Assembly (NCBI GenBank): GCA_044336925.1
Contig: JBIIOM010000001.1
Location: 1-53,529 of the forward strand
Direction of reading: 5' to 3'
DNA: 53,529 nt
From: Pirellulales bacterium
GTDB taxonomy: Bacteria > Planctomycetota > Planctomycetia > Pirellulales > UBA1268
The position numbers and the translations under genes are program-made. The notes beneath the pieces are model-generated. The model was not told the origin of the DNA. It saw nothing but the letters and a program-made list of their open reading frames with translations, and did no database searches. Below, one piece after another: positions 20,756 to 49,659 of this stretch. The stretch's first letter is position 1. Every line of letters begins with the position of its first letter.

Positions 20756-20771
20756 GTCTGAATAGTAATGA

Positions 20772-20788: not shown

Positions 20789-20879
20789 AAGCGCACTACG
20801 GCGTTCCCAGGGCCGGCATCGGTCACGAGCTGCTCCCCCACCGTGACCAGGCGTTCGAGCATCCGCTGGGCGTCGCTCT

Positions 20880-22792: not shown

Positions 22793-22869
22793 CTGATCCT
22801 CATCGATCCATGCCATGTTTTTCCCGTTCAAGCCATTACTATAAGGTCTCACCTTCCCGGCCTCAAACC

Positions 22870-30250: not shown

Positions 30251-32526
30251 CGCTCCGCCTCCGCGGCCGCGAGCCGTGTCCGGAGCCAGTCGCAGCGGTG
30301 TGCGGCGGCCGCCGCGGCGGTGTCGTCGCCGAGAAGCTGACAGGTTGCTGAAAGACCATCCCACATCCGTGGATCACCCGAATAAAACCTCGTTGCCGAT
30401 TCGAACACGGCGCGGGCAGCGGCGGCGCGGCCTTCGTCGAGATGCCGGCGGCCCTGCCGAAGAAGCTCGTCGGGCGTGCCGTAGCCCTCGCGCTCGAACC
30501 AGCAAAGGTCGTCGAGTTCGGCCGGCGGGCCGTGAAGGGCCGCGTCGATCGCGGCGACATCGAGCCGGTAGACGAGGATCGACCCGCCGATCGAGGCGTC
30601 GGGTGTTCGCTGCCGAAGGAAGGCTTCGAGGCGGGCTGCCTGCAGGATGTTGAAGGCGGCCACGGCGAGATCGGGGAGCGAAGGGGGCTGCCCGATGTCG
30701 CCAAGGCCGAGGTCGTCGCGGTCGGCCGTGAAGGCTCGGAGCAGTTGTTTCGCGGAGCCGTCGTCGGCCTCCTTGCCCCCGGCGTCGAGCCACTGGCTCG
30801 CGCGGCGGTAGTGGTCTTCGAACAGGCGGCACCAGCGGCCGCGTGGCCGGTCGGAGATGCCTTGGAGCGCCGTCGCGCTCACGCAATAGATGCCGGGTTC
30901 GAGGACCTGCTTTACGCCCCAGCCCCGCGGATAGCCGAGGTGTTCAACGGCTCGCAGTTCCGAGGAGACAGGGGCGGCGCCCGAATAGTTGACGTAGATT
31001 CGGTCGGCGGGGGCCGAGTGCTGTTCGAGCCAGCGGCCGAGGCGGCGGAGATCCTGGCCCCAATCGAGGCTCGAATCCACGAGCCACTGGTGCGCCTCTC
31101 CGCGGGGCACGAGTTGGTTGAAGTAGGCGAGCGAGGCCGGATAGCGGCTGACGACGTCGGCCGCATGCAGGACCACGAGGCCGGAGATGAGGAACTTGCG
31201 CCACGGCACGGTCGCAACCTGCCAGCAGCCACCGGCGAGGATCATGAGCGGCGGATACGAGGGGAGGAGGTGCCGCTCACCGATATTCAGGTGACTGGTC
31301 AGAAACGTCGCCCAGAGAAGACCGAGCCACACCAACAGCGGCAGCACGTTCCAGGCCTCGTCATCGAGGGCGAGGCGGTGGGCGATTCGCCCGATCACGA
31401 GGGCCACCGCCCGGGCCACCCCGAAGCCGGCGAGCACAAGGGCGGGCAGTGTGTTCTTGACCGCGAGGCAGAGTGGAAAAAACCACCACCATCCAAACAC
31501 TGAATGCTCGCCGATCGCAAACGCTTCGCGATGGCCACTGCGAGCGGCGACGTAGCTCAGTCCCCACAGCCACGACTCGGGCAACAGCCGCCAGACCGCA
31601 ACCCCTTCGCAGACCATGCCGACACCGCCCGCATGGCCCACGCACTCGGCAAGTGTGGGAAACCAGAAAAACCCTGCTGGTTCCGAACCGGGCACGAACG
31701 CCCGGTAGCGGAAGCCGCACGAGGCCCAGATCACGAACACGGCCGCCAGGAGCGGCCCGACGAGGCTCGCGGCCATCACCGCCGCCTTCCGCCCGCGATC
31801 GACGAACATTGTCGAAAAGTCCGCCATAGAGAGCGGCAGCGGCCGCCGTGACGCTGCCATGATGATCACAAACAGCCCGGCCAGCGGCGCAAGCAGCACG
31901 CACGAATGCTTCGCGATCGCCGCGAGACCCACCGCGACGGAGGCCGCGATCAGTGAACCGACGGTCACCCGATTGACCAGATTCCAGAGCAACCATGCGC
32001 CGAGCGTGAAAAAGAGGCTGCCGCAGGCGTCGCTCGTGGCCAGCGGGCCGTGGGCCACGAGGGCCGGCCAGAAGGCTGCGAGCCCGAGCGACACAAGCCC
32101 GCCACCGTGGCCAAAGAGTGAACGGGCCCACAGATAGACGACGAGGCAGAGCGCCGCGGACCATATCGTCGCCATCCCCCGTGCGGCGGCAAGGATGACC
32201 GCCGGATCGTGGCCGGACTCATAGAGGAGCGAGCGTCCCAGGCGAAAGCTGTCGCTCTGCCGCCATGCCACCTCATCCTCGGGCAGCCGATATCCCAGCG
32301 CGACAAGCGGCACCGCGCACCAGCGCTGCGGCAGATTGCCGTTTTCAGGCTGGAGCCGGTAGTCGTCGGTCGTCCAGTACGAGAGGCCGGATGCGATGTG
32401 CAACACCTCGTCGAACGTGGCCGAGGCGTCGAGTGTCGCCGTGAAGGCGAGCGCAGAGTGGGCGATGAGCAGGCCGGCCACGGCGATGCCCTGGAGCCAC
32501 GGGCTTGGATGGCCAGACGCCGTCAT
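30247..32526 (-). CDS. GT39/PMT_2-like GT-C glycosyltransferase with large C-terminal domain, copy B
   Basis: ATG at 32526 overlaps the upstream TGA as ATGA. First-loop motif TFDEVLHIASG...YRLQPENGNLPQRW. Also IAKHS and the periplasmic motif VDSSLDWGQDL. C-terminal TPR-like end. Confidence 0.75.
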   Translation of the reverse strand: MTASGHPSPWLQGIAVAGLLIAHSALAFTATLDASATFDEVLHIASGLSYWTTDDYRLQPENGNLPQRWCAVPLVALGYRLPEDEVAWRQSDSFRLGRSLLYESGHDPAVILAAARGMATIWSAALCLVVYLWARSLFGHGGGLVSLGLAAFWPALVAHGPLATSDACGSLFFTLGAWLLWNLVNRVTVGSLIAASVAVGLAAIAKHSCVLLAPLAGLFVIIMAASRRPLPLSMADFSTMFVDRGRKAAVMAASLVGPLLAAVFVIWASCGFRYRAFVPGSEPAGFFWFPTLAECVGHAGGVGMVCEGVAVWRLLPESWLWGLSYVAARSGHREAFAIGEHSVFGWWWFFPLCLAVKNTLPALVLAGFGVARAVALVIGRIAHRLALDDEAWNVLPLLVWLGLLWATFLTSHLNIGERHLLPSYPPLMILAGGCWQVATVPWRKFLISGLVVLHAADVVSRYPASLAYFNQLVPRGEAHQWLVDSSLDWGQDLRRLGRWLEQHSAPADRIYVNYSGAAPVSSELRAVEHLGYPRGWGVKQVLEPGIYCVSATALQGISDRPRGRWCRLFEDHYRRASQWLDAGGKEADDGSAKQLLRAFTADRDDLGLGDIGQPPSLPDLAVAAFNILQAARLEAFLRQRTPDASIGGSILVYRLDVAAIDAALHGPPAELDDLCWFEREGYGTPDELLRQGRRHLDEGRAAAARAVFESATRFYSGDPRMWDGLSATCQLLGDDTAAAAAAHRCDWLRTRLAAAEAER

Positions 32527-35060: not shown

Positions 35061-35063
35061 CGA

Positions 35064-36077
35064 TCACTCCGTGCTCAGCGGAGTGCGTCCCGCGACGGCG
35101 GCGTGATCCTCGGGCAGCACGTAGTCCCGCCAGTCGCGGTGGGGCAGGAAATTGGCGGCACTGCGGTTGCCGAGGACGAACACGGCCAGAAGCAGGCTCA
35201 CGATGCCGAGCAGCAGGCCGCCGATCACGAGCATCCCCGCGGTGAACGTCGCCCAGCCGGGGATCGCGGCGGTCGTGAACAGTCGGATCGTGAGCACGGC
35301 GCCGAGCGCGGCCACGACCGCCGCCATCAGCCCCGCCACGATGACGAACAGCCGTGACACGATGACGTCGCTCCACACCGAGAGCGTGCAGATGCCGTGC
35401 ATCACGAGCGCCGGCAGATTCATCTTCGACTCCCCGGCGAGCCGGCGGCCGCGGGCGATCGGCACCTGCACGACCGGAATCCGGGCGTGGAACACGCCAG
35501 CGGCATAGTGATTCCAGATCTCGGATACGCCCACCACCCGCTCGAGCACCGGCCGCGGCAGGACGCTGAAGTTGCCCACCTTCACGTCGCGGCCCACGAA
35601 GATCTTGTGCAGCAGGCGAAACGTCCGGTAGCCGAGCATGAATCCCGCGCCGTCGTGTCGCTTGAGCCGCTCGGCGAACACCGCTGCGTGGGGCGAGCCC
35701 TCGACCGCCACCGCGAGCAACTCCGGCAGCGACGACGGGCAGTCTTCGCCGTCGCCATCCATCACCACGGCGTAGTCGGCGTCGGTCTCGGCGGCGATGA
35801 ACGACAGGCCGATCGCGATCGCCCGCTGGTGGCCGAGGTTGCGGCGGAGCCGGAGGACTTCGACGGCCGGGATATGCGGCGTCGGGCCGGGCAGGGCCGC
35901 ACACTCCTCGTGCCGGGAGCCGTCGTCCACGAACACCACGGCGAAGTCATAGGGGAGCGAAGCGGCGACGGCTTCGAGTTTGTCGAGCAGGAGCGCGGCG
36001 CTCTTCGCGTCGTTGAAGACGGGAATGCAGGCGACAACGGAGGGACGTTCGTGTGGCATGTGGTTCATGCTGTTCAT
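35064..36077 (-). CDS. GT2 glycosyltransferase with two C-terminal TM helices (GtrB/ArnC-type polyprenol-phosphate glycosyltransferase architecture)
   Basis: ATG at 36077. Motifs: ACIPVFND, VFVDDGS, VMDGDGED. The C-terminal hydrophobic segments VIVSRLFVIVAGLMAAVVAAL and FTAGMLVIGGLLLGIVSLLLAVFVL match GtrB/ArnC topology. Confidence 0.8.
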   Translation of the reverse strand: MNSMNHMPHERPSVVACIPVFNDAKSAALLLDKLEAVAASLPYDFAVVFVDDGSRHEECAALPGPTPHIPAVEVLRLRRNLGHQRAIAIGLSFIAAETDADYAVVMDGDGEDCPSSLPELLAVAVEGSPHAAVFAERLKRHDGAGFMLGYRTFRLLHKIFVGRDVKVGNFSVLPRPVLERVVGVSEIWNHYAAGVFHARIPVVQVPIARGRRLAGESKMNLPALVMHGICTLSVWSDVIVSRLFVIVAGLMAAVVAALGAVLTIRLFTTAAIPGWATFTAGMLVIGGLLLGIVSLLLAVFVLGNRSAANFLPHRDWRDYVLPEDHAAVAGRTPLSTE

Positions 36078-36087
36078 GACTGCCGAT

Positions 36088-38154
36088 TCATGGTGAGGCG
36101 GCGAGGCCGACCAAGGCCAGCATGGCGGCCGGCGGCTTCCCGCCGAGCCGCACGAACGCCTCGATGTCGGCCCGCGCCTCGGCCGTGCGGCCGGCGCGGA
36201 TCAGGAGAACGGCTCGATTGTAATGGGCATCACGGAAGGTTGGATCGGCCGCGAGCGCCGCTGTAAAGTCCGCGATGGCTGCCGCGGGCTGGCCCATTTC
36301 CGCGTGCAGCCCGCCACGGTTATAGACCGCCTCGGCGTCTTTGGGGTCGCAGGCAACGGCCCGATCGAAGGCCTCCAGGGCGGCGGCCCGATCGCCCCGG
36401 TCCTGCCGGGCGATGCCAAGGTGATCCCACCCCTTGGCGTATTTCGGATCGACCTCGACGGATCGGGCGAACGACCGCTCGGCATCGTCACGCCGACCGA
36501 GATCAAGCAGCACGTTGCCGCGGTTGAGCCAGGCGGGGGCGATCTGGTCGTCGAGGGCGAGGGCCCGGTCGAGATCGGCGAGGGCCTCTGGCGACCGGCC
36601 GAGTTTCCAGAGCACGTAGCCGCGGTCGGCATGCGTGGCTGCGTCGTCGGGCGTGAATTCCAGCACGGCGTCGATCGCGGCGAGGGCCTCGGGATAACGG
36701 CCCTGGGACTTTGCGAGCGAACCGACGTTGACGCTATGCACCTTTGGATAGCGGCCTGTCTCCGCCACCCGGGCCAAGAGCCGCTCCGCCTCCGCGAGCG
36801 ACGCGGGATCCTTCTTCGCGATCAGCTGGGCCGCGAGGTTGATCATCGCCCGCTCGTTCCGCGGCTCAGCCGCAAGGGCCTTCCGCCACAGAATCTCGGG
36901 CGTGACGAACTCACGATTGCGGGCCGCCGTCGAGAGGCCGAGTGCGAGGGCGACAGCGGTGGCGGCCAGGCCGCAGAACCGCGGCGAGAGCGCGAGCCGC
37001 TCCCGGGCGACGACCCAGGCCGCCGCCACGGCGGGCACGATCAGGCAGGCGCTCGCCAGATACGCCCGATGCTCCGCGATCGTCTGCGTCTTGACCGGGA
37101 CCACGGACGACGTTGGCCCCAAAAGCACGAAGAAGAGAAAGGGGCCGAGAAAGGCGATCGGGAACTTCGCGTAGCCGTAGACGACGCCGCCAAACACCGC
37201 TGCCGTGAGCAGGAGCCAGCCCCCCGACTCGGCCAGCCCCGACGAGAGAAAATCGCCGTAGTCGAAGACGAGCCCCTGCGGCCACACGATCCGCGCGAAG
37301 TAGAGCCAGATCGCCTTCGCCTGCGTGAGCAGGTAAAGCCAGGGAGAGGCCGAGTCGAGCCCGGCCGACGAGCCGCGGCCGCCAAGCGCCGTGAGCATGA
37401 GAGCGACACTCGGCCACGAGGCTGCCGCCGCGAGGTGCCACGGCCAATGCCGAAGCGTGCCCCGCCAGGATCCGGCGATGAGCGCTCGATCGACGAGCAG
37501 CGTGACCAGCGGGATCGCCACGCTCGTCTCCTTCGCGGTGCCTGCGAGGGCGGAGAGCAGGGCGACGAGGGGCAGGGCCCATGTCTTGCGGCCGGCGTCG
37601 GCCGCGAGGATCCCCCGCACGCAGACGAGCAACGCCGCGAGGGTCATGAACGCCCCGAGCGATTCGGCCCTCTGGATGACGTAGGTCACCGCAGCGGTGC
37701 CGAGCGGATGCACCGCCCACAGAACCACCGCGGCGAACGCGATCTCCCCGGCCCGGTCGCGGACGGCTGCCGGCACCGCGGGACGCGCGAGCAGCTCGCG
37801 AGTGAGCGCGAGAAGCAGCAGGGCGTTGCCGCAGTTAATCAGAATGTTCACCACGCGGAACCCGATTGGCGCGGTTCCCGTGACCGCACGATTGACCGCG
37901 AGCGAGACATTGAGAAGCGGCCGGCCGTCGATCGTCCTCCCCTCGCCGTGCTCGTAGACGAGGACGGGCCAGAGCGGCCAGAGCGAGCGAATCGAGCGAT
38001 TGGCCGTGACACTCGAGGCATCGTCCATGATGAACGGCGCCCTGAGGCCGCTCGCGTAGGCCAGCCAGACCGCCGCGACGAGCGTGAGAGCGGCCAGAAG
38101 GCCGCTCTGAAGCCCAAAAAAGTTCGGCGGTTTTTCCAGCGCGTTTTCGGCCAT
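36088..38154 (-). CDS. TMTC-like GT-C membrane protein with long C-terminal TPR domain (paralogue T6)
   Basis: ATG at 38154. Motifs: APFIMDDASSVTAN, GFRVVNILINCGN, VHPLGTAAVTYVIQRAES, TAKE, LGPTSSVVPVKTQTIAEHRAYLA. About 7 C-terminal TPRs. Confidence 0.8.
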   Translation of the reverse strand: MAENALEKPPNFFGLQSGLLAALTLVAAVWLAYASGLRAPFIMDDASSVTANRSIRSLWPLWPVLVYEHGEGRTIDGRPLLNVSLAVNRAVTGTAPIGFRVVNILINCGNALLLLALTRELLARPAVPAAVRDRAGEIAFAAVVLWAVHPLGTAAVTYVIQRAESLGAFMTLAALLVCVRGILAADAGRKTWALPLVALLSALAGTAKETSVAIPLVTLLVDRALIAGSWRGTLRHWPWHLAAAASWPSVALMLTALGGRGSSAGLDSASPWLYLLTQAKAIWLYFARIVWPQGLVFDYGDFLSSGLAESGGWLLLTAAVFGGVVYGYAKFPIAFLGPFLFFVLLGPTSSVVPVKTQTIAEHRAYLASACLIVPAVAAAWVVARERLALSPRFCGLAATAVALALGLSTAARNREFVTPEILWRKALAAEPRNERAMINLAAQLIAKKDPASLAEAERLLARVAETGRYPKVHSVNVGSLAKSQGRYPEALAAIDAVLEFTPDDAATHADRGYVLWKLGRSPEALADLDRALALDDQIAPAWLNRGNVLLDLGRRDDAERSFARSVEVDPKYAKGWDHLGIARQDRGDRAAALEAFDRAVACDPKDAEAVYNRGGLHAEMGQPAAAIADFTAALAADPTFRDAHYNRAVLLIRAGRTAEARADIEAFVRLGGKPPAAMLALVGLAASP

Positions 38155-38286: not shown

Positions 38287-41200
38287 ATGCCCCGCCTGCC
38301 AGTCGCGGTCTTCATGATCCTGCCGGCCTGCTTGCTGCTCGCGCCGGGCCAGTCCGCCGAGCCGACTCGGGCCGCAGAGCCGGCGCCGTCCAAGCCGCTC
38401 GCCGGCGTAGAACGCGACGTGCGGGTGCAGCAGTATCTCGAAAGCGCGCAGCGGAAGCGGGAGGCGGGCGACTTCGAGCAGGCTCTCAGCGACCTGCGGG
38501 CCGCCAACGCGCTCGTGAAGAAGACGCGGGGCGACGGTCACCCCGACCAACTGCCGCTCCTCGACCTTGCCGCGGAGATACTCGTCGAAAACGACAAGAT
38601 GCAGGATGCGGAGGGGCCGCTGCAGAAGGCCGTGGCCCTGCGGGAGTCGCTCGCCCGCGAGGGGCAGTCGAGCCAGGAGGTGCCGCTGGCGGCCTCGCTC
38701 CTTCTGCTCGGCAAGGTGCATGCCGCGCTCGGCAAATACGAGAGCGTGGTGGACATGCTCAAGAAGGCCGTCCGCATGCTCGACACATCGCTCGGGCCGG
38801 AACACGAAAAGACGTTTCAAGCCCGCCGAGAGCTTGCCCGCTCGGTGGAGATCTTCGAGGAGACGCTCGGGCCTGAGCACCCGGCGACCCTCAAGGCGCT
38901 CGAAGAGCTCGACGAAGTGCAGGCGGCGCTCGGCGACTGGACCGGAGCCGCCGCCAATGCCCGCAAGATCATCGGAGTGAAACAGGCACAGCTCGGCGCG
39001 GCGAACCCGGAGACGCTCGACGCGGTGATGACGCTCACCGATCTGATCGCGCACGGCGGTGCGGCCGATGAAGCGATCACGATCCAGGCCGAAGCGATCG
39101 CCGCCGCCGAAGCGGCCGAAGTATCGCCGGCGGTGCTCGTGCCGTCGCTGCGGCATCTCGCGGCCCTGCACCTGGCCAACGAGGACTACTCGCCGGCCAT
39201 CGATGCCTACACGCGGGCCCGCGATCTCGCCGCGGCCCACCTCGGTGCCGACGGGGCCGAGCCGCTCATCGATCGGCTGCATCTCGTGGACGTGGCGCAG
39301 AAGCGGGGCGACGACGATCCGTGGGACGCGGGCTTCGAGGGCATCGTCGCCCGGCTGCGGGAGCTCGCCGGCCAGGACGACCCGCGGGCGGCCGAGGGGC
39401 TCAGGCTCGCGGCCGACGCCCTCCTCGCCGCCGACTCCTTCGACCGGGCGAGCGAACTCTACCGCGAGGCGCTCGCGCTCGACGAACGGCTGCTCGGTCC
39501 GGCGCACGTGGACGTGGCGTCCGACCAGACGGGCCTCGGCCGCTGTCTCGTGGGCAATGGCGACACGAAGGCGGCGGAGTCGCTTTTGCGGACGGCGCTC
39601 CAGACGATGCAGCGCGAGCACGGGCCGGCGCACGCGGCCACGCTCGAGGTGCTCGCCCGGCTCGCGGAGTGCGCCGTGCGGGCGGGCGACGCCAAGACCG
39701 CGGAACAATGCGTGGCGCAGATCCTCGAGCGGCGGGTGCCGCGGCAGGGCGCGCACGCCGAGGAGGACTTCTGCCGCCTCGTCGATGCCGCGGCCGCGCT
39801 CTGCGAAAAGGCCGGAGATGCCGCCAAGGGGGGCGCGATCCGCGACCAACTCGTCGCCATCCGGAGGGCGCAATTCGGCGAGTCGCACGAGCACGTCGCC
39901 GACGTTCTCGTCACCATGGCCAACGCCCGGCAGGCGGTCCGCGACTACCCCGCCGCGACGGCGATGTACGAGGCGGGGATCGCCATCTACGAGGCCGCCT
40001 TGGGCGCCGAGCACCCCGACATCGCCGGGGCGCTGTTGCCGCTCTCCCGCACCTACCGGGCGATCGGGAAGAACCCGGAGGCGGAGCTGGCCCTGCGGCG
40101 GGCGCTCGGCATCTGGGAGGCGACCGTTGGCCCCGAGCATGAAGTGACGCTCGCGACCATGAAACCGTTGGCGATCGTGCTCCTCGCGCTCGGCCGCGAG
40201 GCGGAGGCGATTCCGCTGATGGAGCGGCTGCTGGCCGGTCTCGACGCCGATCCATCAGCCGACCGGATGGAAATGGTGAAGCTGCTCACGAAACTCGCCG
40301 AGGTGCGGGAGGCGATCGGCGAGGCCGACGCCGCCCGCCGGGACCTCCGCCGGGCGATCGAAATCGAGATGCGGTTGGCCGACACCGACCAGGCCGGCTC
40401 GGCGACTGACCTGGCCGACATCGCCAAGCTCCAGCAGCTCCTCGGCGATGATGAGGCCGCCGCCGAGAACCTCGCGCGGGCCCGTGACATGGCGGCCAAG
40501 CTTCCCGACGCGAAGGATCAGATCGCGAAGATCGAGGCCACGGCCAAGCCCGCCCGCAAGCCGGTGGCCGCCGCTCCGGCCACCGACAAGCCGGCCCCGC
40601 CGCCGACGGTGTCGAGCGCCGCCGTGATCGCCGCGGCGAAGAGCAAGTATCGGCTCGGCAAGCGGAGCGAGGCCCGCGGCATGCTCGAGAAGGCTCTCGG
40701 CGATCTTCGGGCAGGAACGGATCGTGATCTCGACCGCGCCGACCTGCTCGTGACGCTGGCCGACATGCGGCAGCGGACGACCGACTACGACGCGGCGGCC
40801 GTGCTCTACGAGGAGGCGCAAAAAATCGCCATCGAGCGCGGCGGCTCGAGTTCGCCGCGGGCGCTCGTCATCGCCCTGCGGCTGCTCGGCATTCGCCAGG
40901 CCCAGGGGCAGGCTCCGGTGGCGACGAGCCTCGTGGATGACGTCGAAAAGAGTGCGCAACAGGTTTTTGCCGGTGGGCCCTCGGCCGAGTCGATGGACGA
41001 AGTGCGTGAGGCGGTGCGCCGGGCCGAGGCCGTGTCGCTCGCCGCGGGCGACCGCAAGAGCGCCCGCCGGCTTCTCGAGATCGGCCTCGCCCTCGCCGGC
41101 CGGCCCGATCGCCGTTCGGCCCTCGCGGCGCTCGACACGCTCGCGGTGCTCCTGGCGAGCGGCAGGTCGTCATCGGCCGTCGCCCTCCGCACGCGGCTCC

Positions 41201-42993
41201 TCGATGCGGAGATGCTCAATGCCCGCCGCGACGACCCGCTCTCCGCGCGGTTCATCCTCCACCGCGGCATCGCCGCCGAACAGGCGGGGGATCTCCCGAC
41301 CGCCGAACGCGACTATCGCCAGGCGCTCGCGCTCGACGAGGCGACGCAGGGCCGCGATCACCCGTTCGTGGCGGTCGATCTCCTGCGGCTGGCGGCGGTG
41401 CGGGAGCTGGCCGGGGATCGCGCCGGTGCGACCGAGGCCCGTGGCCGGGCCGTGGCGATCGCCGAGCAGGCCGGCCGCGCGGCGACCAGCGATGTGGCGG
41501 CCGATCTGCGCACGCTGGCCGTGGCGCTCGGCACAGCCGGCGAGACCGACGCCGCCACGAAGCTGATCAAGGCCGCCGTCGATGCCCAGCTCAAGAGCGA
41601 CGGCGCGAAGTCGATCGACGTCGCCCGCTTGCTCGCCGATTCGGCCGACATCTTCAAGAGACGCGGCAACGCCGCGCGGGCCTCGGAACTGCTCACCGAG
41701 GCGATGGCCATCGCCGACGCGGTGGTCGGATCTGGCCATCACGAAACCCTCGCGCTGGCCGCGAAGCTGGAACAGTTGAAGCGGTTTGGCGCCACCGACC
41801 AGATTGCCACGCGGACGTCGGTGCCGCTGGCCGCGGCGGATGCGGCACGGCCAGCCGCGGCGGGGCCGGCGGCGACGCAAGCCGCCTCGGCGATGCCGCC
41901 GTCACCAGCCGTTGCCGTCGCTCCGGTCTCCGCAGCCGCGCCCCGCGATCCCGAGATCGACGCGGCACTGGCGGCAATCGCCGCCGATGTGGCGGCAGGG
42001 CGACTGCCCGCCGCGTTGCAGCAGTTCAAGGATCTCGGCCAGCAGGTGTGGAAGACGCACGGCGTCGATGATCCGCGGGTGGCGCAGGTGGCCGTGCCGT
42101 ACGTGCACTTCCTCGTCGAGCACGGAGAACTGCGCAAGGCCCGCGCGATCGTCGATCGTGCCGTCGCCGCGCGGACGAAGTCGCCGGGTCCCACCCATCC
42201 CGACACGGCCGAGACCGTGCTCGCTGCCGTCGCGGTGGACGTCGCCGCCGGAAAGATCGACGAGGCCTGGGCCAACTACGGCCTGGCACGAGCGACCCTC
42301 ATGGCCGCCGGCGCGAACGTCGATCGCGCGGCGATCGTGCAGTCGTTCGTCGCGAGAGCGTGCGAGCTTGGCGACGTGGCGACGGCGATCGATGCCGCTG
42401 AACGGTTTCTCGACGGCCGATCCTCGGCCGTGGCGGCGGCGGAGGCCACGGCCGTCCGGGCGACCCTCTGCGAAGCTCTGCTCGCTGCCGGGATTGCCGA
42501 TCGAGCCGTGGCCGTGGCCCGTGAATGCGTGCCGCAACGGGCGGCCGATGCGACGGTTGACGCAGAGTCTGTGCCCGCCCTTGCCCGCCTCGCCCACGTT
42601 GAACAGGCCGCGGGGCTCTCGGAATGGACTCGCACCGCCGCCGCCGCCGAGGCGGCGCTCGCGCCGGCACTCGATGCCGCTTCCCCTGAGCAGTGCGCCC
42701 CGGGGCTGATCCGGGCCGGCCGCGAGCTTGCCCGCACCCACGCCCGCGCCGGAGACCTGGCCGGGGGACTTTCGCTGGCCGAGCACACTGCAGCCGCTGC
42801 GGCGCGCGGATTGCCCGAGCGGCACACGGAGCGGCTACTGGCGGAACGGGTGCTGGCCGAACTGCTGCTCGAATCGGGGAGCGCCGACCGGGCCGCAGCG
42901 CTGCTGGAGACCGCACGCGGGCAGTCGATCGACTTCGACGTCCGCGAGGCGGTGTTACGGCACTTCGCCACCGCCGCGACACTGCCGCTCTGA
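38287..42993 (+). CDS. giant exported TPR_10/TPR_12-type repeat protein (1568 aa)
   Basis: ATG at 38287. Signal-peptide-like N-terminus MPRLPVAVFMILPACLLLAPGQSAEP. The rest is dozens of roughly 42-aa TPR_12-like repeats (for example HPDTAETVLAAVAVDVAAGKIDEAW). The only break is an Ala/Pro/Lys-rich linker around AKPARKPVAAAPATDKPAPPP. Confidence 0.8.
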   Translation: MPRLPVAVFMILPACLLLAPGQSAEPTRAAEPAPSKPLAGVERDVRVQQYLESAQRKREAGDFEQALSDLRAANALVKKTRGDGHPDQLPLLDLAAEILVENDKMQDAEGPLQKAVALRESLAREGQSSQEVPLAASLLLLGKVHAALGKYESVVDMLKKAVRMLDTSLGPEHEKTFQARRELARSVEIFEETLGPEHPATLKALEELDEVQAALGDWTGAAANARKIIGVKQAQLGAANPETLDAVMTLTDLIAHGGAADEAITIQAEAIAAAEAAEVSPAVLVPSLRHLAALHLANEDYSPAIDAYTRARDLAAAHLGADGAEPLIDRLHLVDVAQKRGDDDPWDAGFEGIVARLRELAGQDDPRAAEGLRLAADALLAADSFDRASELYREALALDERLLGPAHVDVASDQTGLGRCLVGNGDTKAAESLLRTALQTMQREHGPAHAATLEVLARLAECAVRAGDAKTAEQCVAQILERRVPRQGAHAEEDFCRLVDAAAALCEKAGDAAKGGAIRDQLVAIRRAQFGESHEHVADVLVTMANARQAVRDYPAATAMYEAGIAIYEAALGAEHPDIAGALLPLSRTYRAIGKNPEAELALRRALGIWEATVGPEHEVTLATMKPLAIVLLALGREAEAIPLMERLLAGLDADPSADRMEMVKLLTKLAEVREAIGEADAARRDLRRAIEIEMRLADTDQAGSATDLADIAKLQQLLGDDEAAAENLARARDMAAKLPDAKDQIAKIEATAKPARKPVAAAPATDKPAPPPTVSSAAVIAAAKSKYRLGKRSEARGMLEKALGDLRAGTDRDLDRADLLVTLADMRQRTTDYDAAAVLYEEAQKIAIERGGSSSPRALVIALRLLGIRQAQGQAPVATSLVDDVEKSAQQVFAGGPSAESMDEVREAVRRAEAVSLAAGDRKSARRLLEIGLALAGRPDRRSALAALDTLAVLLASGRSSSAVALRTRLLDAEMLNARRDDPLSARFILHRGIAAEQAGDLPTAERDYRQALALDEATQGRDHPFVAVDLLRLAAVRELAGDRAGATEARGRAVAIAEQAGRAATSDVAADLRTLAVALGTAGETDAATKLIKAAVDAQLKSDGAKSIDVARLLADSADIFKRRGNAARASELLTEAMAIADAVVGSGHHETLALAAKLEQLKRFGATDQIATRTSVPLAAADAARPAAAGPAATQAASAMPPSPAVAVAPVSAAAPRDPEIDAALAAIAADVAAGRLPAALQQFKDLGQQVWKTHGVDDPRVAQVAVPYVHFLVEHGELRKARAIVDRAVAARTKSPGPTHPDTAETVLAAVAVDVAAGKIDEAWANYGLARATLMAAGANVDRAAIVQSFVARACELGDVATAIDAAERFLDGRSSAVAAAEATAVRATLCEALLAAGIADRAVAVARECVPQRAADATVDAESVPALARLAHVEQAAGLSEWTRTAAAAEAALAPALDAASPEQCAPGLIRAGRELARTHARAGDLAGGLSLAEHTAAAAARGLPERHTERLLAERVLAELLLESGSADRAAALLETARGQSIDFDVREAVLRHFATAATLPL

Positions 42994-43138: not shown

Positions 43139-43174
43139 TAACTCACGTATTCGGCAGGCTGAAGCCTACCCTAC
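43102..43174. terminator. long imperfect hairpin between convergent genes (candidate bidirectional terminator / REP-like element)
   Basis: 29-nt arms at 43102-43130 and 43146-43174 match at 26 of 29 positions, with a 15-nt loop. The 3' arm contains the TAG stop (43171-43173) of the minus-strand gene. Confidence 0.6.
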
Positions 43175-44655
43175 TCGGCCGGCGGATCGGCGGGGACCTT
43201 GGCGGGCGGCGGCTTCGGCTTGGCCTTCTTGGCGTCGCCCTTGCTGATGGCGGAGAGCGCCTTGCGAGCGGCGGCGTCGGCCGCGTCGCTCGCGGCGAGC
43301 ACCTGTGAGCTCTTCTGCTCCTGCGTGCGGGAGCCGGCGAGCAGGTCGGCGAGCAGGGCGTGCAAGGGCGAGGACGGATCGTATTGCGAATCTTCCGCCT
43401 CGACGAGTTGCTTGGCGGACTGCAACGAATCGACCGCCCGCTTCGCCGCCTGCTTCGAGGCCAGCGAATCCTTGGCATCGAAGGCCGCCCTCGATTCGCG
43501 AAGCGCCAACTCCGCGGAAAGCATGAGCGGCAACGCGATGTCGGGATGCTTCTCGAGACCTGCCGATTCGAGCCCTTCGAGGCCGGCATCGAGGTGGCGG
43601 CGGGCCGACTTCAGGTCGCCCGCAAGCATCTCCGCCTCCGCCAGCGAAGCGAGCGGCTCGGCCCGCACGAGCGCCGCCTCGCGGGCGGCTGCGACGAATT
43701 CGGGCGGGGGCGCGGCCTCGGGGTCATCGCGAGTCTTGAACGACGCGAGCGCCGCATCGGCGGCGGCGCTGCCGAGGCCCATCGACTCTTCGAGGTAGCT
43801 GATGGCGCGCCTGCGCTGGCTGTCGGCCTGCATCTTGCGATCGGCCGCGTCTTCCGGCGGCGCGTCTTCCGCGGGCTTCGACGTGGCGTCCTCTGCGTCG
43901 TCTGTGTTTGTGTCGGCGGCGACCGTCCAAGGCAGCTTGCTCGCCTCGAGATACCGCATGCCCGCGAAGCGGCGGGGCCGGGCCTGCGTGATCATCATCC
44001 GGGCATGGGCCGAGCGCGACATAGGATCGTCTTCCTCGTCGGAGAGCCGGCCACGCAGCGAACTGCGGGCCGCGATCGACATCCGGATCAGCGTGTCGAT
44101 CCGCTCGAACCAGCCGTCGATCTGCTTCCGATCGGCGGTTTCGCGGCCGACGGCCCGCGCGTCGTTCGCGGCCCGCGCCCGCTGGAGATACAGTTCCGTC
44201 GTGTTGTCGAGCAGCCGGAGATACGTCAGCTCGAGCGGCAGCCAGTAGCGGCCCAGCTGCTCGCCATCGTCGCGCGGCGATCCCGCCATCACGAGCTGCT
44301 GGAAGCCGGGCTCACTCACCATCTTGTAGGCGTCGGTGAGCGTCTTTTCGGCGGCATCGAGGTTTCCCATCCGCCGTTCGATGCTGCCGCGGTAGATGAG
44401 CAGCTCAGCATAGACGATGGTCATCGGGCCGAGTGAGACGTTCTTCTTCCGCGGCTTGATCGCCGCCTCGACCCGCTTGGCTTCCGCGACGGCTTGTCGG
44501 TATTTGCCCTCCTCGAGCAGTTCCGTGAGCAGTTTCCGCTCGACGGCGAGGTCAAACTGCGCGAGCGCCGCGCGTGACGTGAAGCCACCGACCGCGATCA
44601 GGACGCAGATGGCGAGCAGGAAGGAGCGAGCGGGGCCGACATGCGGGCGACTCAT
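43171..44655 (-). CDS. exported alpha-helical hypothetical protein with acidic and Lys/Pro-rich regions
   Basis: I prefer the ATG at 44655 (MSRPHVGPARSFLLAICVLIAVGGFTSRAALAQ, a signal peptide). The ORF-track extension to 45099 is Arg/Pro-rich. High GC3. I recognise no family. Confidence 0.6.
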   Translation of the reverse strand: MSRPHVGPARSFLLAICVLIAVGGFTSRAALAQFDLAVERKLLTELLEEGKYRQAVAEAKRVEAAIKPRKKNVSLGPMTIVYAELLIYRGSIERRMGNLDAAEKTLTDAYKMVSEPGFQQLVMAGSPRDDGEQLGRYWLPLELTYLRLLDNTTELYLQRARAANDARAVGRETADRKQIDGWFERIDTLIRMSIAARSSLRGRLSDEEDDPMSRSAHARMMITQARPRRFAGMRYLEASKLPWTVAADTNTDDAEDATSKPAEDAPPEDAADRKMQADSQRRRAISYLEESMGLGSAAADAALASFKTRDDPEAAPPPEFVAAAREAALVRAEPLASLAEAEMLAGDLKSARRHLDAGLEGLESAGLEKHPDIALPLMLSAELALRESRAAFDAKDSLASKQAAKRAVDSLQSAKQLVEAEDSQYDPSSPLHALLADLLAGSRTQEQKSSQVLAASDAADAAARKALSAISKGDAKKAKPKPPPAKVPADPPAE

Positions 44656-44713
44656 GAACGCATTCCAGGGGCCGGTCGGGAATCGATGCCTCCCAGTATA
44701 TCGACCAGTGCCG

Positions 44714-45400
44714 CTACTTTTTCCCCGGGGCCGCCGGTTCCGAAATCCAGGGTGCTTCGAGCGGAGCGAGCGGATCGCTCTCGCCCGCGGGGCCGCCGAG
44801 GACGTCGAAAGACACGCGATGCGGCAGTCGCGCGAGTGCGAGGGCGGTGGCAAATGAAAGTTCCGTGAGCCGCGGAAAGGCGATCGGGCCGCGGTGGGGA
44901 GCGAGGGCTTGGGCCGCCCCGGGCGAGATCGAGCCGAGCCGCGAGAGCACGAGGACTCCGCGGTGGCCGGCGAGGGCACGGGCCGTCTCCGGGGAAAGGG
45001 CCAGCAGGCCGACCGAAAGCGGGTGCCGCAGCCGAGCGAGGGCGGCTGCGGTCGCCGGCGGCAGGACGACGAGGCCGTCGAGTGCCAATGGGCCCGCATG
45101 CCGGGAAAGTGCCAGCGCCTGCTTTTGCTCGATCGCTTCGAGACCGCCGAGCGACAGCCAGCCCCGGTGCGGAGCGAGCGCCGCGGCCGACTCCACCGGG
45201 AGCGCCACGACCGAGTCGAGCACGAGCGGCCCCTGATGCCGGGCGAGGTCGCGGGCCATCACCGGCACGAGCATCCGCAGGTCGGGCCGCGCGAGCAACT
45301 CTCCGGGATCCGGCTGGGCACATGCCGGCATCGGCAGCACCGCGATGATGACGGCGAGCACCGGGGCCATGACCCGGCCGGCGGCATCCTTAAAAATCAT
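44714..45400 (-). CDS. exported leucine-rich-repeat-like protein (about seven 23-24-aa repeats)
   Basis: I prefer the ATG at 45400 (MIFKDAAGRVMAPVLAVIIAVLPMPACA|QP, a signal peptide). Repeats have consensus p-x-x-A-x-A-L-A-x-H-R-G-x-L-x-L-x-x-L. GC3 is very high in this frame, whereas the competing ORFs are Arg-rich junk. Confidence 0.6.
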   Translation of the reverse strand: MIFKDAAGRVMAPVLAVIIAVLPMPACAQPDPGELLARPDLRMLVPVMARDLARHQGPLVLDSVVALPVESAAALAPHRGWLSLGGLEAIEQKQALALSRHAGPLALDGLVVLPPATAAALARLRHPLSVGLLALSPETARALAGHRGVLVLSRLGSISPGAAQALAPHRGPIAFPRLTELSFATALALARLPHRVSFDVLGGPAGESDPLAPLEAPWISEPAAPGKK

Positions 45401-46361
45401 CGGTGGGCTCGACGGGTGCTGGCTTCTCCTCGCCCTCCTGTTCTTCCGTGACCGGCTTCTCATTGTGCTCACCCTCCGCCGCCGGAGCGGGGGGCGTGGG
45501 CTCGGCCGGCTGGCTGGGAGGCGGCGGGAGCGGGGGAGCGGCGGGCTTCGCAGGCGGCTTTTTGGCCCCCTTGACGGGCCGATCGCGGTTGGCGACGAGC
45601 ACCTGTGAGTCCCAGCGGCCGACCGTGTATTTCTCGATCAGGCCGACGCGGCGAAGGCGGTTGCCGTCCACGTCTTCATAGTAGAGATCCTTCGTGAACG
45701 TGCCGTTGCCATCGACGTCGAAAAACGGATCATGGTCGTCCTGCGTGGTGTTGGCGTCGGTGTCGTACCAGGTCTCGCTGGCCAGTCGGGCCGAGCCCAC
45801 GCTCTCCTTGCTGGCCGGCTCGCCGTAGAGCACGAGCGACCGGCCCTCGTGCCGCTCGCCGGCGAACCCGCCCGCCGTGCGCAGGGCCGTCTTGCCGACG
45901 TCGAGAAACATGTGCTGGGCGGGAATCCGCAGGAACGACAGAAACGGGCACATCGACCAGGTGACGAGCGCCGCCCCGATGAACAGCGCCCCGGCGAATC
46001 CGCCGACCACCGCCCCGCCCGCCATGTCGATCGCTTCGATCGACTTGATCTCCTTGGAGATGATCTTGGGATGCACGAACAGCCAGAGCACGAACATCGT
46101 GCCCCACATGAGCAGGGCGAAGGCGAGAAACACCGACCAGGCCTGGAGCGACACCGTCTCGGGCAGGAAGACGCCAAGATTGTCGCTGAGAATCGGGGCC
46201 AGGAAGCCGGCGATCGGCTCGTGGAGCAGGACGGCGAGCGAGAGCGAGACGAAGAGCTCGAGGGCCGTCACGGCGCAGGAGTAGACGCCGTGGGCGCTCC
46301 CCAGCCAGCCGAGGTAGAGGACGACGATCAGGACGCCGAGATCGAAGATGATGGCGGGCAT
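45390..46361 (-). CDS. CvpA-like (colicin V production family) membrane protein with extended C-terminal tail
   Basis: ATG at 46361 lies 6 nt after GAGGAGA. The N-terminus MPAIIFDLGVLIVVLYLGWLGSAHGVY plus 4 TM helices is typical of CvpA. The tail has two DVDGN motifs and a Pro/Ala/Glu-rich end. Confidence 0.65.
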   Translation of the reverse strand: MPAIIFDLGVLIVVLYLGWLGSAHGVYSCAVTALELFVSLSLAVLLHEPIAGFLAPILSDNLGVFLPETVSLQAWSVFLAFALLMWGTMFVLWLFVHPKIISKEIKSIEAIDMAGGAVVGGFAGALFIGAALVTWSMCPFLSFLRIPAQHMFLDVGKTALRTAGGFAGERHEGRSLVLYGEPASKESVGSARLASETWYDTDANTTQDDHDPFFDVDGNGTFTKDLYYEDVDGNRLRRVGLIEKYTVGRWDSQVLVANRDRPVKGAKKPPAKPAAPPLPPPPSQPAEPTPPAPAAEGEHNEKPVTEEQEGEEKPAPVEPTDDF

Positions 46362-46378
46362 GAGTCTCTCCTCGCGGG

Positions 46379-48202
46379 TCAGGTCGTGACCCGGATCACT
46401 TCGTTGACGCTCGTCAGGCCCTTGAGCACTTTCATGAGGCCGTCGGTCTGCAGCGACCGCGTGCCCGCCTTGCGGGTGGCCGCCTTGAGGTCGTTGATGT
46501 TGGGCTCGGCCGTGATCAGCTTGCGGATCTCGTCGTTCATGACCATCAGTTCGTGGAGGCCGAGCCGGCCCTTGTAGCCGCTGCCGCCGCAGGCGTCGCA
46601 GCCCTTCTCCTTGTAGATCTGCTTGACAATGCCGGGCTTCACGCCGAGCCGCTTGAGCAGGTCGGCGGGCGGTTCGTAGGCCTCCTTGCACTTGTCGCAA
46701 AGCCTGCGGGCGAGCCGCTGGCCGAGCACGGCGGTGACGGCGGTCTGGATCAGCATCGGATCGAGGCCGAGGTCGAGCATCCGGGTGACCGTGGCGACGG
46801 TGTCGTTGGCGTGGAGCGTGGAGAAGACGAAGTGGCCGGTGAGGGCCGCCTGGCAGGCGATCTCCGCCGTCTCCTTGTCGCGGATCTCGCCCACGAGCAG
46901 CACGTCGGGATCCTGGCGGAGCACGCTGCGGAGAATGCTCGCGAACGTGACGCCGGCGGCGGAATTGACCGCGATCTGCGTGATGCCGTCGAGCCGGTAT
47001 TCGACCGGGTCTTCGATCGTCGTGATGTTGTGCTGAAGGGCGTCGATCTCGTTGAGCGAGGCATAGACGGTGGTCGTCTTGCCGGAGCCGGTGGGCCCGG
47101 TGACCAGGAACATGCCGTAGGGCTTGTGGATCACCCCCCGCAACTGCTCGAGGATCTGCGACCGCAGGCCGATGTTGGCCAGGCCCGCCTTCATCACGCC
47201 CCCGGAGGAATTCAAGAGCCGGAGCACCATCTTCTCGCCGTAGCTGGTGGGAGTGGACGCGGAGCGGACGTCATATTTCGCCTTCTCGAAGACCGCCGAG
47301 AAGGTGCCGTCCTGCGGCCGGCGGCGCTCGGAGATGTCCATGTCGGAGACCACCTTCAGCGCCGAGATCACCCCCTTGCCGTCGCCCATCGAGAGCAGCG
47401 AGGAGTTCTTGAGCACGCCGTCCACCCGGAACCGCACGAAATACTGCTGCTCGTGCGGCTCGAGGTGCACGTCGGTGGCGCCCGCTTCCATCGCCGCGAT
47501 GAGGATGTTTTGCAGGTTCTTGACGTTGGCGGACATCGTGTCGCCGTCGTCGCCGTCGGCGGGCTGGGTGAGCGCCTGCCGGCCGTCTTTCTTGAGGAGC
47601 GAGAACCGTGGCGCCTCCTTGGGCGGCTCCTTCTTGCCTGCCAATTTCTGGAGCGTGTCGCCGAGACCCTTGACTCGGTCCATCAGCGACTTCGGCGGCT
47701 CGGGGGGCTTGGCCGCGGCCTCCTTCGCCGCGGCCTCCTTCGCCTGCGCCCGGCTGTCGCGGAAGCCCTGGAGCATGTTTTTCAGTCCGTCTTTCGTGAG
47801 CAGCCGCTTGGCCGGCGGCACCCGCTTGTCGCGCTCGCGGGTGAAGACCGCCAGCAAGGCGGGCAGGCCCACCGCGACGATCGGAATCGTGAGCGGGCCG
47901 ACCTGCATCGTGCCGATCACGAGCGCCGCGAGCGTGGCGCCGATTCCGAGATACCACCACTCCATGTTGGGAATGGCGAGATCCTGGTTCTGCTTGTCCA
48001 TCCAGAGCGCGGCGGCGATCCCGACCGCCGTGAGCGACGCAAAGGCGGCCCAGATCAGCAGCCCCGTGAGGGGAAAACCCGAGTACGAAGGGAGCTCGAG
48101 GTTTGCCAGCAGCGGCACCCAGGCGACGGGCATCGTCATGAAAAAGACCACAGCTGGACGGACGGACGTCGCCAGAGCGTCGCTAAGGTGCGACGACAGC
48201 AC
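46379..48202 (-). CDS. GspE/PilB-family secretion ATPase fused to an N-terminal 3-4-helix transmembrane domain
   Basis: Walker A GPTGSGKTTT. Also Asp box, Walker B and His box region (LLVGEIRD, FSTLHAND) and a tetra-Cys motif (CDKC...CDAC). Residues ~1-125 are hydrophobic helices, followed by a Lys/Ala/Pro linker. The start is GTG at 48202 or ATG at 48139. Confidence 0.85.
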   Translation of the reverse strand: MLSSHLSDALATSVRPAVVFFMTMPVAWVPLLANLELPSYSGFPLTGLLIWAAFASLTAVGIAAALWMDKQNQDLAIPNMEWWYLGIGATLAALVIGTMQVGPLTIPIVAVGLPALLAVFTRERDKRVPPAKRLLTKDGLKNMLQGFRDSRAQAKEAAAKEAAAKPPEPPKSLMDRVKGLGDTLQKLAGKKEPPKEAPRFSLLKKDGRQALTQPADGDDGDTMSANVKNLQNILIAAMEAGATDVHLEPHEQQYFVRFRVDGVLKNSSLLSMGDGKGVISALKVVSDMDISERRRPQDGTFSAVFEKAKYDVRSASTPTSYGEKMVLRLLNSSGGVMKAGLANIGLRSQILEQLRGVIHKPYGMFLVTGPTGSGKTTTVYASLNEIDALQHNITTIEDPVEYRLDGITQIAVNSAAGVTFASILRSVLRQDPDVLLVGEIRDKETAEIACQAALTGHFVFSTLHANDTVATVTRMLDLGLDPMLIQTAVTAVLGQRLARRLCDKCKEAYEPPADLLKRLGVKPGIVKQIYKEKGCDACGGSGYKGRLGLHELMVMNDEIRKLITAEPNINDLKAATRKAGTRSLQTDGLMKVLKGLTSVNEVIRVTT

Positions 48203-48486
48203 GTTTTATACCGGTTCTACCCACGCCGACACGGTGCCGCAACATCGGAGGTCCCCGCAGGCCGGGAAAAAACCATGTTTTCGCGGCCCTCACGCGTTTC
48301 TAACTGGACGGGACGGCCTTTCTGGTCGAGAGTGTGGGGGCGATAGTCGAGTTGCGACAGCCGGTCTGTCGGCGGTGTGCGGGGATGGCTTTGTGCACGC
48401 GGGGGGGCGTCGATCGGACGGATTCGCGCTCGGCGATCGTCCCGCCTTTGGTTCGATTCCTCGCCCCGCTTTCGAGGAGAACTGTG

Positions 48487-49659
48487 ATGAAGACTTCGAC
48501 ATACGGAAATCATTCTGCGCCGAGAGGCCTCGCGCCGCCGCGTGGGTTTACGCTGGTGGAGCTGCTGGTCGTGATCGCGATCATCGGCATTCTCCTGGGC
48601 ATGCTGCTGCCTGCCGTGCAGGTGGTCCGCGAAACGGGCCGCCGTTCCAGCTGCCAGAACAACCTGAAACAGATTTCGACGGCGATCATTCACTACGACT
48701 CGACGAATTTGAAACTGCCCGGCTGGCGGAATGCGATCGACACGTATAGCCCGGTGATGGTGTCAGCCACGGCGACGAAGGACAACGCCTGCGTCTCCTG
48801 GACGGTGCCGATTCTTGGCGAACTGGGCAGCAACGAGATCTTCAACTGGTATGAGACGTACACCGGCACGACGAGCGGCACGATCGCACAGCAATCGCGC
48901 GACGAGATCGCCGCAAAGCGCATCCCGATCTACCTCTGCCCGACGTCGAGCGCCGACATGGCCGTGACGGGCGGGCTGTCGTATGCCGCGAACGCTGGGA
49001 CCGGCGGTGAGGAGATGATGGGCAGTAACCCGGCCGACCAGTATCGTGGCGACGGCGTGTTTCTCGACGCCGTAGGAAACGTGAATGCCAACGGCTCGGC
49101 CGCGTATTACGACAGCGGCCGCAAGATGTACAACCCCGCCCGGTCGTCGCTCTCGCACGTGACGAGCGGCGACGGCGATGCCGTGACGCTGATGCTTTCG
49201 GAGCGGTGCGGTCCGGTGACCGGTTTGGGGAGCGTGTCGTGGGCGGCCAATCCGCTCGCCGTGCAGACGACGGGCAGTGCGTTCACGGCAGGTCGCCATA
49301 TGTTCGGCCACCCGCCGTTCAACTCGAACGTGCCGCAGGCATCGAACGTGTATCGGGTGATCAACACACCGAGCGACAAGGTGCCGCCGAACAGCGCCGA
49401 CGACTACGCAGTGCGTTATCCGTCGTCGCGGCACCGCGGCGGCGGCGTGAACGCGGTTTTTTGCGACGGCCACACGCGATTCGTGAGCGAGAAGATCGAT
49501 TCCTGGGTCTACTGCCAGATGCTGACGTCGAACTCGAAGATCCTCGACAACAACATGAACACCGGGCATACCGGCAGCCGCGCCTACCGCTGGCAACAGT
49601 ACGGCATAGGCGGATTCACGAAGGAATACATCTTCGACGACAAGGATCTCGACAAGTAG
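48487..49659 (+). CDS. DUF1559 protein with prepilin-type N-terminal methylation domain (pseudopilin-like)
   Basis: ATG at 48487 lies 7 nt after GAGGAG. Motifs: [27 protein letters not shown] and the classic H-X9-[20 protein letters not shown]. Confidence 0.9.

Follow-up and report, generated by a model that had tools for sequence, protein, structure and literature searches.

Type IV pili, type II secretion systems (T2SSs), competence pili and archaella are currently modelled with a soluble hexameric ATPase seated on a GspF/PilC-type platform. Here we analyse a locus of a Pirellulales bacterium (assembly GCA_044336925.1, contig JBIIOM010000001.1) at which a PilB/GspE-family ATPase appears to anchor itself in the membrane through its own transmembrane (TM) helices and is followed directly by the gene of a CvpA-family membrane protein. 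The window, by which we mean the whole stretch of 53,529 bp (GC content about 68%), is the entire contig in public assemblies, and inspection of the locus ends at the contig edges. The analysis as a whole draws on uncultured organisms, through their sequences, gene order and predicted structures.

The GspE–GspL–GspF assembly of the T2SS shares with this locus an N2 domain and ATPase core with Walker A and B motifs, Asp and His boxes and a tetra-Cys motif, as well as a membrane-tethered motor and a prepilin-like gene nearby. It differs in both tether and platform: the family described here lacks the N1 domain, and so any GspL-binding part, the tether being three predicted TM helices of the ATPase itself, and no GspF was found among the window open reading frames (ORFs) scanned or in 78 related loci. 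The PilB/PilF–PilC pair of type IVa pili supplies the best PDB matches of the ATPase, those to PilF, but MshEN/GSPII domains and an adjacent PilC, PilMNOPQ or PilT are absent here, and the ATPase falls into a separate clade.

CvpA is conserved across bacterial phyla and is needed for gut colonisation by enteric pathogens. Escherichia coli CvpA shares with the partner described here a four-TM body (PF02674) and a variable C-terminal extension, which is predicted to be periplasmic and has been proposed to bind periplasmic partners (bioRxiv 10.1101/2020.09.25.314492). The partner differs in being paired, apparently obligately, with an ATPase and in having a folded C-terminal domain of about 110 residues with DxDxDG-like motifs, a Pro-rich spacer and a terminal Asp-Asp-Phe (DDF). 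Mycobacterial MarP (Rv3671c) also has a CvpA-like membrane domain.

Two further systems offer analogies. In the archaeal bindosome of Sulfolobus, a soluble PilB-like ATPase (BasE) and one PilC-like membrane protein (BasF) are thought to assemble solute-binding-type proteins with class III signals. The likeness is one of analogy only: DUF1559 proteins (Pfam identifier SBP_bac_10) also have a prepilin signal, but NF053672 is matched at 43.2 bits against a cut-off of 1000, and the CvpA-like partner is not T2SSF-like. In the type VII ABC mechanotransmitters (MacB, LolCDE, FtsEX), cytoplasmic ATP hydrolysis moves a periplasmic domain via TM helices, with no inner-membrane transport; what may be shared is this logic alone, the ATPase fold and membrane proteins being unrelated.

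We read the locus as a self-anchored PilB/GspE-type motor with an obligate CvpA-family membrane partner in place of the GspF/PilC platform, together forming, at the least certain step, a platform-less device that would handle DUF1559 prepilin-like proteins, a reading to which we give a probability of roughly 0.55. Literature searches returned no description of a TM-anchored PilB/GspE-type ATPase, no paper linking CvpA to PilB/GspE-type ATPases and, for DUF1559 and GspE in Planctomycetes, no account of the ATPase–CvpA module. As far as these searches go, it is an undescribed envelope module of Planctomycetia, of a known kind in that its ATPase belongs to the T2SSE superfamily and, within it, to the tetra-Cys GspE/PilB clade.

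Four consecutive ORFs occupy the minus strand from 43171 to 48202, and a fifth gene is divergent. The first two ORFs form the module:

46379–48139, minus strand: PilB/GspE-family ATPase, predicted to be TM-anchored, 586 amino acids (Pfam T2SSE; NCBI and JGI gene calls; homologues cover 94–97%)
47828–48070, minus strand: ATPase N-terminal membrane domain, residues 24–104, ending in the invariant R103-D104 (AlphaFold2, hydropathy)
47531–47827, minus strand: ATPase Lys/Ala/Pro-rich linker, residues 105–203, predicted cytoplasmic (alignments, AlphaFold2 secondary structure)
46382–47530, minus strand: ATPase N2 domain and C-terminal core, residues 204–586 (PDB phmmer, Foldseek)
47072–47098, minus strand: ATPase Walker A (motif coordinates checked)
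46589–46699, minus strand: ATPase tetra-Cys motif (motif coordinates checked)
45390–46361, minus strand: CvpA-family partner, 323 amino acids (Pfam Colicin_V; AlphaFold2)
45930–46361, minus strand: CvpA-like four-TM body (AlphaFold2)
45576–45914, minus strand: CvpA-like folded C-terminal domain with DxDxDG-like motifs (AlphaFold2)
45393–45575, minus strand: CvpA-like Pro-rich tail, last residues DDF-COOH (DDF codons 45393–45401)

The ATPase and its N-terminal membrane domain

The ATPase matches Pfam T2SSE (PF00437) with 401.8 bits against a gathering threshold of 24.9 (E = 2.8e-120, residues 227–604). Its catalytic motifs are intact (Walker A GPTGSGKTT, Asp box TIEDPVEY, Walker B DPDVLLVGEIRD, His box TGHFVFSTLHAND) and nearly invariant in the close family, with GKTT, TIEDPVEY and DPDVLL fully so. 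The tetra-Cys (zinc) motif, CxxC...CxxC at residues 481–517, the criterion by which the GspE/PilB clade is told apart from PilT, is invariant in every alignment. The complete GspE/PilB-type core with tetra-Cys motif that a first-pass annotation of this DNA had recognized is thus borne out.

Within that clade the protein is neither a typical GspE nor a typical PilB. It scores almost equally against the two most specific NCBIfam models, the equivalogs TIGR02533 for GspE (461.7 bits, cut-off 630.25) and TIGR02538 for PilB (462.4 bits, cut-off 675.65), and stays below both cut-offs. Against the PDB, phmmer matches PilF (352–354 bits), Vibrio GspE (334–347), Geobacter PilB (about 342) and Myxococcus PilB (3jc8, 321), all confined to residues ~204–585 save one alignment that begins at 163. 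Foldseek of the ATPase model recovers only PilB, PilF and GspE, the top matches being 39–43% identical. Public annotation of the family proteins is generic only ('GspE/PulE/PilB-like' or 'hypothetical protein').

Ordinary PilB/GspE ATPases, 94 in number and encoded at 80 loci across many phyla, served as controls; they came from a profile scan of genome contigs with the ATPase alignment, in which the matches listed were ordinary PilB/GspE loci only, at 39–47% identity. A neighbour-joining tree of the core sequences, drawn without support values, groups 12 family ATPases into a single clade and leaves all 94 ordinary cores outside it, among them Planctomycetota sequences from metagenome-assembled genomes. 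Core identity to the window ATPase is 58–89% for catalytically intact family members, 35–50% for a degenerate sub-lineage and 39–48% for the ordinary PilB/GspE ATPases.

One ATPase sub-lineage carries a Lys-to-Arg change in Walker A (GSGRTT; loci L134, L136, L139, L141 and L143, proteins P0128, P0131, P0135 and P0145), and most of its members also lack the Walker B Glu (GSLDD, GDLDD). These ATPases still stand directly upstream of a CvpA-like gene, the product of which has a tail without DDF. Such paralogues of the motor might be inactive or might have a regulatory role.

The ATPase probably starts at ATG 48139, where the NCBI and JGI gene calls and the homologues begin, rather than at the GTG at 48202, to which the ORF remains open and which the first-pass annotation had taken. 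The frame from 48202 to 46379 contains no stop, and GC content at third codon positions (GC3) is 0.83–0.97 from about 48120 to the stop codon. More than 120 homologue clusters (55–98% identity, 575–600 amino acids) cover 94–97% of the ATPase including the N-terminus, and they keep its landmarks: PSFSGFP before helix 1, two Trp, and an invariant Arg-Asp after helix 3. The linker is conserved too, and an invariant LLKKDG strand precedes the N2 domain. Conservation of the N-terminal region at the protein level persists, with invariant residues, down to 27–59% identity.

AlphaFold2, run on a 40-sequence alignment, models helices at residues 24–54, 59–79 and 84–104, with a 10-residue block-mean predicted local distance difference test (pLDDT) of 91–96 over residues 31–120. 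On this model the hydrophobic helices of the first-pass annotation are membrane helices, three in number where up to four had been allowed. Two further helices and a short strand follow them, probably in the cytoplasm. Given three helices, the last of them followed by a strongly basic stretch, the positive-inside rule predicts a periplasmic N-terminus and a cytoplasmic core. No N1 or MshEN/GSPII-type domain is matched by Pfam in residues 1–201 even at E ≤ 5, and the three TM helices occupy the place of such a domain.

The fusion recurs well beyond close relatives, and the N-terminal region is kept in hundreds of Planctomycetia homologues from metagenomes. A profile search with the N-terminal domain against 1.84 billion representative proteins found 28 clusters, and among the full-length hits (548–611 amino acids) five of six are T2SSE fusions (four by scan, P0046 by annotation), the weakest, P0147, having no T2SSE domain. 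Apart from that hit, the N-terminal domain is present in the full-length hits checked only as a T2SSE fusion. A search from the most divergent hit reached a second large branch of proteins of about 545 amino acids, covered to 99–100% including the N-terminus and in some cases labelled Pirellulales; another family member comes from a Gemmatales metagenome-assembled genome. At least two N-terminal hydrophobic segments are present in 12 of 12 family ATPases; of the 94 ordinary ones, 92 have none and two have one.

It has to be asked whether the hydrophobic region could be a separate small gene or untranslated, with the ATPase beginning near MSANVKNLQ, a start that the first-pass annotation had named as possible. 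An in-frame ATG does lie there, at 47536. The uninterrupted frame with coding-like GC3 throughout, the N-terminal conservation across divergent proteins, the conserved linker and LLKKDG motif, the high pLDDT of the helices and the inclusion of the N-terminal region in every full-length homologue all speak against it. On codon usage, conservation and structure we reject an internal start, which would make the long N-terminus an artefact of annotation, as extremely improbable. The upstream region is coding, as had been claimed, and conservation, frame and model together indicate that it belongs to the same protein, which is to say that the ATPase is predicted to be self-anchored.

The TM domain was compared by hhalign with two candidate relatives. 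The domain as a degenerate GspF/PilC was rejected (probability 0.4%). Columns 20–96 of its alignment match columns 68–144 of the CvpA-like alignment (TM3–TM4) at a probability of 20.7% and E = 1.1e-3, which is not significant; the similarity is most likely compositional, a shared origin of the two being the less likely reading.

The CvpA-family partner and its tail

The CvpA-like gene starts 17 nucleotides (nt) 3′ of the ATPase gene, after the GAGGAGAG motif. Its product reaches Pfam Colicin_V (PF02674) only marginally, with 29.5 bits against a cut-off of 29.3; relatives score higher in precomputed matches. The AlphaFold2 model (pLDDT 82.6, predicted template modelling score 0.74) has four long membrane helices at pLDDT > 90, a compact domain at about residues 150–262 with DxDxDG-like motifs and a disordered Pro-rich tail. 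Foldseek against the PDB finds no match to this model at E < 2, and the C-terminal domain has no Pfam match at E ≤ 5. The candidate identity as a degenerate GspF/PilC was rejected (hhalign probability 0.8%). The C-terminus is probably periplasmic, judging by the positive-inside distribution, the published predictions for E. coli CvpA and the secreted nature of its co-varying partner.

The association of the two genes is conserved throughout. The CvpA-like gene lies directly 3′ of the ATPase gene in all seven non-redundant neighbourhoods first examined, at 15–40 nt, a translational-coupling distance; two of these neighbourhoods are very divergent, and their remaining neighbours are unrelated housekeeping genes. 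In the Pirellulales-type branch, all three loci hold a bare ATPase–CvpA pair between lactate-utilisation (lutBC) and succinyl-CoA synthetase (sucCD) genes. In the reverse test, 62 metagenome loci were fetched via the CvpA-like protein; an ATPase core is immediately upstream in all 55 that extend far enough to tell, and at least two N-terminal hydrophobic segments are found in all 35 complete ATPases. The 17-nt gap of the first-pass annotation stands, and its CvpA-like four-TM protein is a true conserved partner.

Ordinary loci have the opposite composition. A hidden Markov model (HMM) of the CvpA-like protein has no match in the 80 ordinary PilB/GspE loci, of which 58 are matched by a GspF/PilC HMM, its seed confirmed as Pfam T2SSF; that HMM finds nothing in 78 family loci (715 kb). 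Within the window, neither T2SSF nor a secretin nor a peptidase A24 is matched among the ORFs scanned, namely the large and high-GC3 ones, in keeping with the earlier observation that no platform gene is present. Secretin and prepilin peptidase are likewise absent from the Pfam listings of 14 neighbourhoods (gene calls, flanks of at least 8 kb), and either may be encoded elsewhere. PADLOC returned no match for any of the five proteins encoded at the locus, and the module corresponds to no known defence system. Gene order thus indicates a conserved unit of two genes, ATPase and CvpA-like, and not the four-gene cassette proposed at first: a leucine-rich-repeat (LRR)-like ORF within that cassette is restricted to the closest relatives, and elsewhere the pair stands alone.

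The tail of the CvpA-like protein varies together with the gene that follows. About 27 of 37 homologues end in DDF-COOH, which is preceded by a hypervariable Pro-rich spacer; in a subset a long, strongly acidic tail (EEEIVVLVDEDG...EEIVEE...KK) takes its place. The fourth ORF of the minus-strand run (ORF4) encodes a protein with a signal peptide (...ALA|Q) and faint matches to TPR_12 and TPR_2, none of them significant in Pfam. Its orthologues, 23–44% identical, lie 3′ of the CvpA-like gene in most relatives. Loci with a complete CvpA-like tail and at least 1.5 kb of downstream sequence divide as follows, the counts being of related, partly redundant loci and not of independent events:

DDF tail: 29 with a strong ORF4 homologue, 4 with none or a weak one
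Other tail: 1 with a strong ORF4 homologue (an 'SDF' variant), 17 with none or a weak one

All acidic-tail loci carry a different secreted TPR-like protein, ALT3, in the ORF4 position. In the ATPase tree this pair of acidic tail and ALT3 appears at two separate places, one of them within the closest clade of the window ATPase, so that tail and partner were exchanged as a unit; in that closest clade the CvpA-like body is 86% identical up to residue 265 and only the tail diverges. The co-variation of tail and third gene points to a docking pair, and since the third-gene product is secreted, such docking would be periplasmic.

Neighbouring genes

The genes and intervals around the module are:

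44714–45400, minus strand: exported LRR-like repeat protein, 228 amino acids (repeat spacing; no Pfam match)
43171–44655, minus strand: secreted TPR-like helical protein (ORF4), 494 amino acids (signal peptide ...ALA|Q; faint TPR_12/TPR_2)
48140–48486, no strand: divergent intergenic region, 347 bp, presumed promoter region (from the coordinates of the flanking ATPase and DUF1559 genes)
48487–49659, plus strand: DUF1559/H-X9-DG prepilin-like protein, 390 amino acids (SBP_bac_10, N_methyl, TIGR04294)
38287–42993, plus strand: convergent secreted TPR_12 protein, 1568 amino acids (Pfam TPR_12, 2.8e-76)

The divergent gene encodes, as previously noted, a DUF1559 pseudopilin: with SBP_bac_10 (1.3e-26), N_methyl (8.8e-09), TIGR04294 and a class III signal G|FTLVE, the protein qualifies as a type IV (pseudo)pilin. 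In the branch of the window an orthologue (35–79% identical) directly precedes the module, in divergent orientation, at about 24 of 35 testable loci, by our own count from the locus table, and these loci span ATPase core identities of 43–97%, the degenerate lineage included. Planctomycetes have many DUF1559 genes at scattered sites (68 in P. limnophila; PMC10632474), so that missing adjacency does not exclude pilin use. No sigma-70-like consensus was found between the two divergent genes (48140–48486), and promoter and terminator scans were uninformative.

The LRR-like ORF consists of seven repeats of about 23–25 amino acids and has no Pfam match at E ≤ 5. It occurs only in the closest relatives, together with a displaced paralogue (20637–21602 of locus L008; position also shifted at 4312–4719 of locus L098). 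Close relatives differ in its position with respect to the module, and most relatives lack it; its behaviour is that of a mobile gene or a recent duplicate, not that of a member of the operon. Its distribution marks it as a recent lineage-specific insert, not a core member. The secreted TPR_12 protein is usually encoded convergently to the module, with homologues so placed in loci L003, L005 and L007, and is a clade-specific neighbour.

Farther off, a second prepilin-type protein (12693–13928, plus strand) matches N_methyl and has no DUF1559 match. Its orthologues, 30–40% identical, lie 5–8 kb from the module in L001, L005 and L007, the distance here being about 30 kb, and a functional link of this protein with the ATPase–CvpA module is conceivable. 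A run of large paralogous genes at 28289–38154 (minus strand), several with C-terminal TPR repeats and two joining a PMT_2-type glycosyltransferase membrane domain to TPR repeats, suggests, together with GT2 glycosyltransferases at 35064–36077 and 22810–23568, an envelope glycosylation locus beside the module. Four large ORFs (929, 1010, 574 and 559 amino acids) at 3491–10553 (plus strand) and 1878–3557 (minus strand) have coding-like GC3 and no Pfam matches. A PIN-domain ORF (20133–20564, minus strand; 3.8e-16) inside a gene-poor gap may be a toxin–antitoxin remnant.

Proposed mechanism, rival readings and meaning

As we picture the self-anchored motor, an ATPase hexamer would be held on the inner membrane by 18 helices of its own, and ATP-driven movement would pass sideways, helix to helix, to the CvpA-like four-TM protein. 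The short cytoplasmic loops of that protein imply that force is not applied through a central pore as has been proposed for PilC/GspF, and a lateral path would be needed. The movement would then reach the folded C-terminal domain and Pro-rich tail in the periplasm, where, in the lineage of the window, the terminal DDF-COOH would dock the secreted TPR-like ORF4 product (43171–44655). The least certain step is the output, which might be extraction or assembly of DUF1559 prepilin-like proteins by a pseudopilus-like or bindosome-like device. More tentatively, and in our view somewhat against the odds, the pair might define a hitherto unnoticed class of type IV filament-related machines that have no GspF/PilC platform, use a CvpA-family protein as a membrane transducer and service DUF1559 proteins in Planctomycetia.

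Several observations weigh against this picture. The pair has only housekeeping genes around it in the Pirellulales-type and Gemmatales branches, and neither a pseudopilin/DUF1559 nor a TPR neighbour, so pilin handling may not be its core function; at the least, an adjacent pilin gene is not required. With only short cytoplasmic loops, the CvpA-like protein offers no PilC/GspF-style entry into the ATPase pore. The coupling is drawn from gene order and from co-variation among related, non-independent metagenomic loci, the tree that sets the family apart carries no support values, and a canonical GspF/PilC, secretin and prepilin peptidase could be encoded elsewhere in the genome. Finally, AlphaFold2 models the C-terminal domain of the ATPase poorly, with pLDDT < 50 at residues 312–393 including the conserved Walker A region, probably because the alignment was shallow, all of its sequences being at least 55% identical; this leaves the family assignment unaffected.

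Two alternatives were weighed. The ATPase might serve a housekeeping task of the envelope unrelated to pilins, such as ion or membrane homeostasis or small-product export, by gating or driving a CvpA-family channel or mechanotransmitter, the DUF1559 and TPR genes being lineage-specific neighbours outside its core function. Such a device would suit the bare pairs of the Pirellulales-type and Gemmatales branches, which lie between lutBC and sucCD or amid other housekeeping genes, and would suit the lack of T2SSF nearby. It would also agree with a proposal that CvpA resembles a channel and has a link to envelope stress (bioRxiv 10.1101/2020.09.25.314492). The immediately divergent DUF1559 orthologue in about 24 of 35 testable loci, kept across core identities of 43–97%, is hard to call incidental, and the scatter of DUF1559 genes (68 in P. 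limnophila, PMC10632474) means that adjacency is not needed for pilin use. All in all, we consider a pilin-independent CvpA device unlikely. Counted against it is also the clade of the motor, tetra-Cys PilB/GspE-clade ATPases not being known from outside type IV filament machines. The first-pass annotation had weighed a minimal type II or IVa-like machine against recruitment of the ATPase to a different envelope process; the DUF1559 link in the branch of the window favours the former, and the bare pair found in other branches speaks for the latter.

The ATPase might instead be that of an ordinary T2SS or type IV pilus with platform, secretin and peptidase encoded elsewhere, its TM domain replacing a GspL/PilM-type tether and the CvpA-like protein being accessory or coincidental. 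Its core is 39–48% identical to ordinary PilB/GspE cores with every motif present, canonical T2SS-like operons such as Plim_0410–0401 are known from Planctomycetes (PMC10632474), and our view is limited to the contig. A coincidental neighbour would hardly be invariant across all branches and contexts, however, and the control loci, with T2SSF in 58 of 80 and the CvpA-like protein in none, show what ordinary loci look like. The family ATPases form one clade, and the window ATPase stays below the cut-offs for both GspE (461.7 against 630) and PilB (462.4 against 676). An ordinary secretion or pilus ATPase is, on this evidence, decidedly improbable, and the self-anchored motor coupled to a CvpA-family partner is the reading that we prefer.

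An integral-membrane motor that never occurs with a platform gene nearby and always occurs with a CvpA-family protein would be a natural experiment on the need for the platform. If the proposed coupling is true, it would give the widespread CvpA family its first mechanistic role, in which CvpA proteins, coupled to a motor, would connect the inner membrane with partners in the periplasm. The matched pairs of DDF tail with ORF4 and acidic tail with ALT3 provide a directly testable interaction, and the module is an entry point both to CvpA function and to what the dozens of prepilin-like DUF1559 paralogues do in Planctomycetes.

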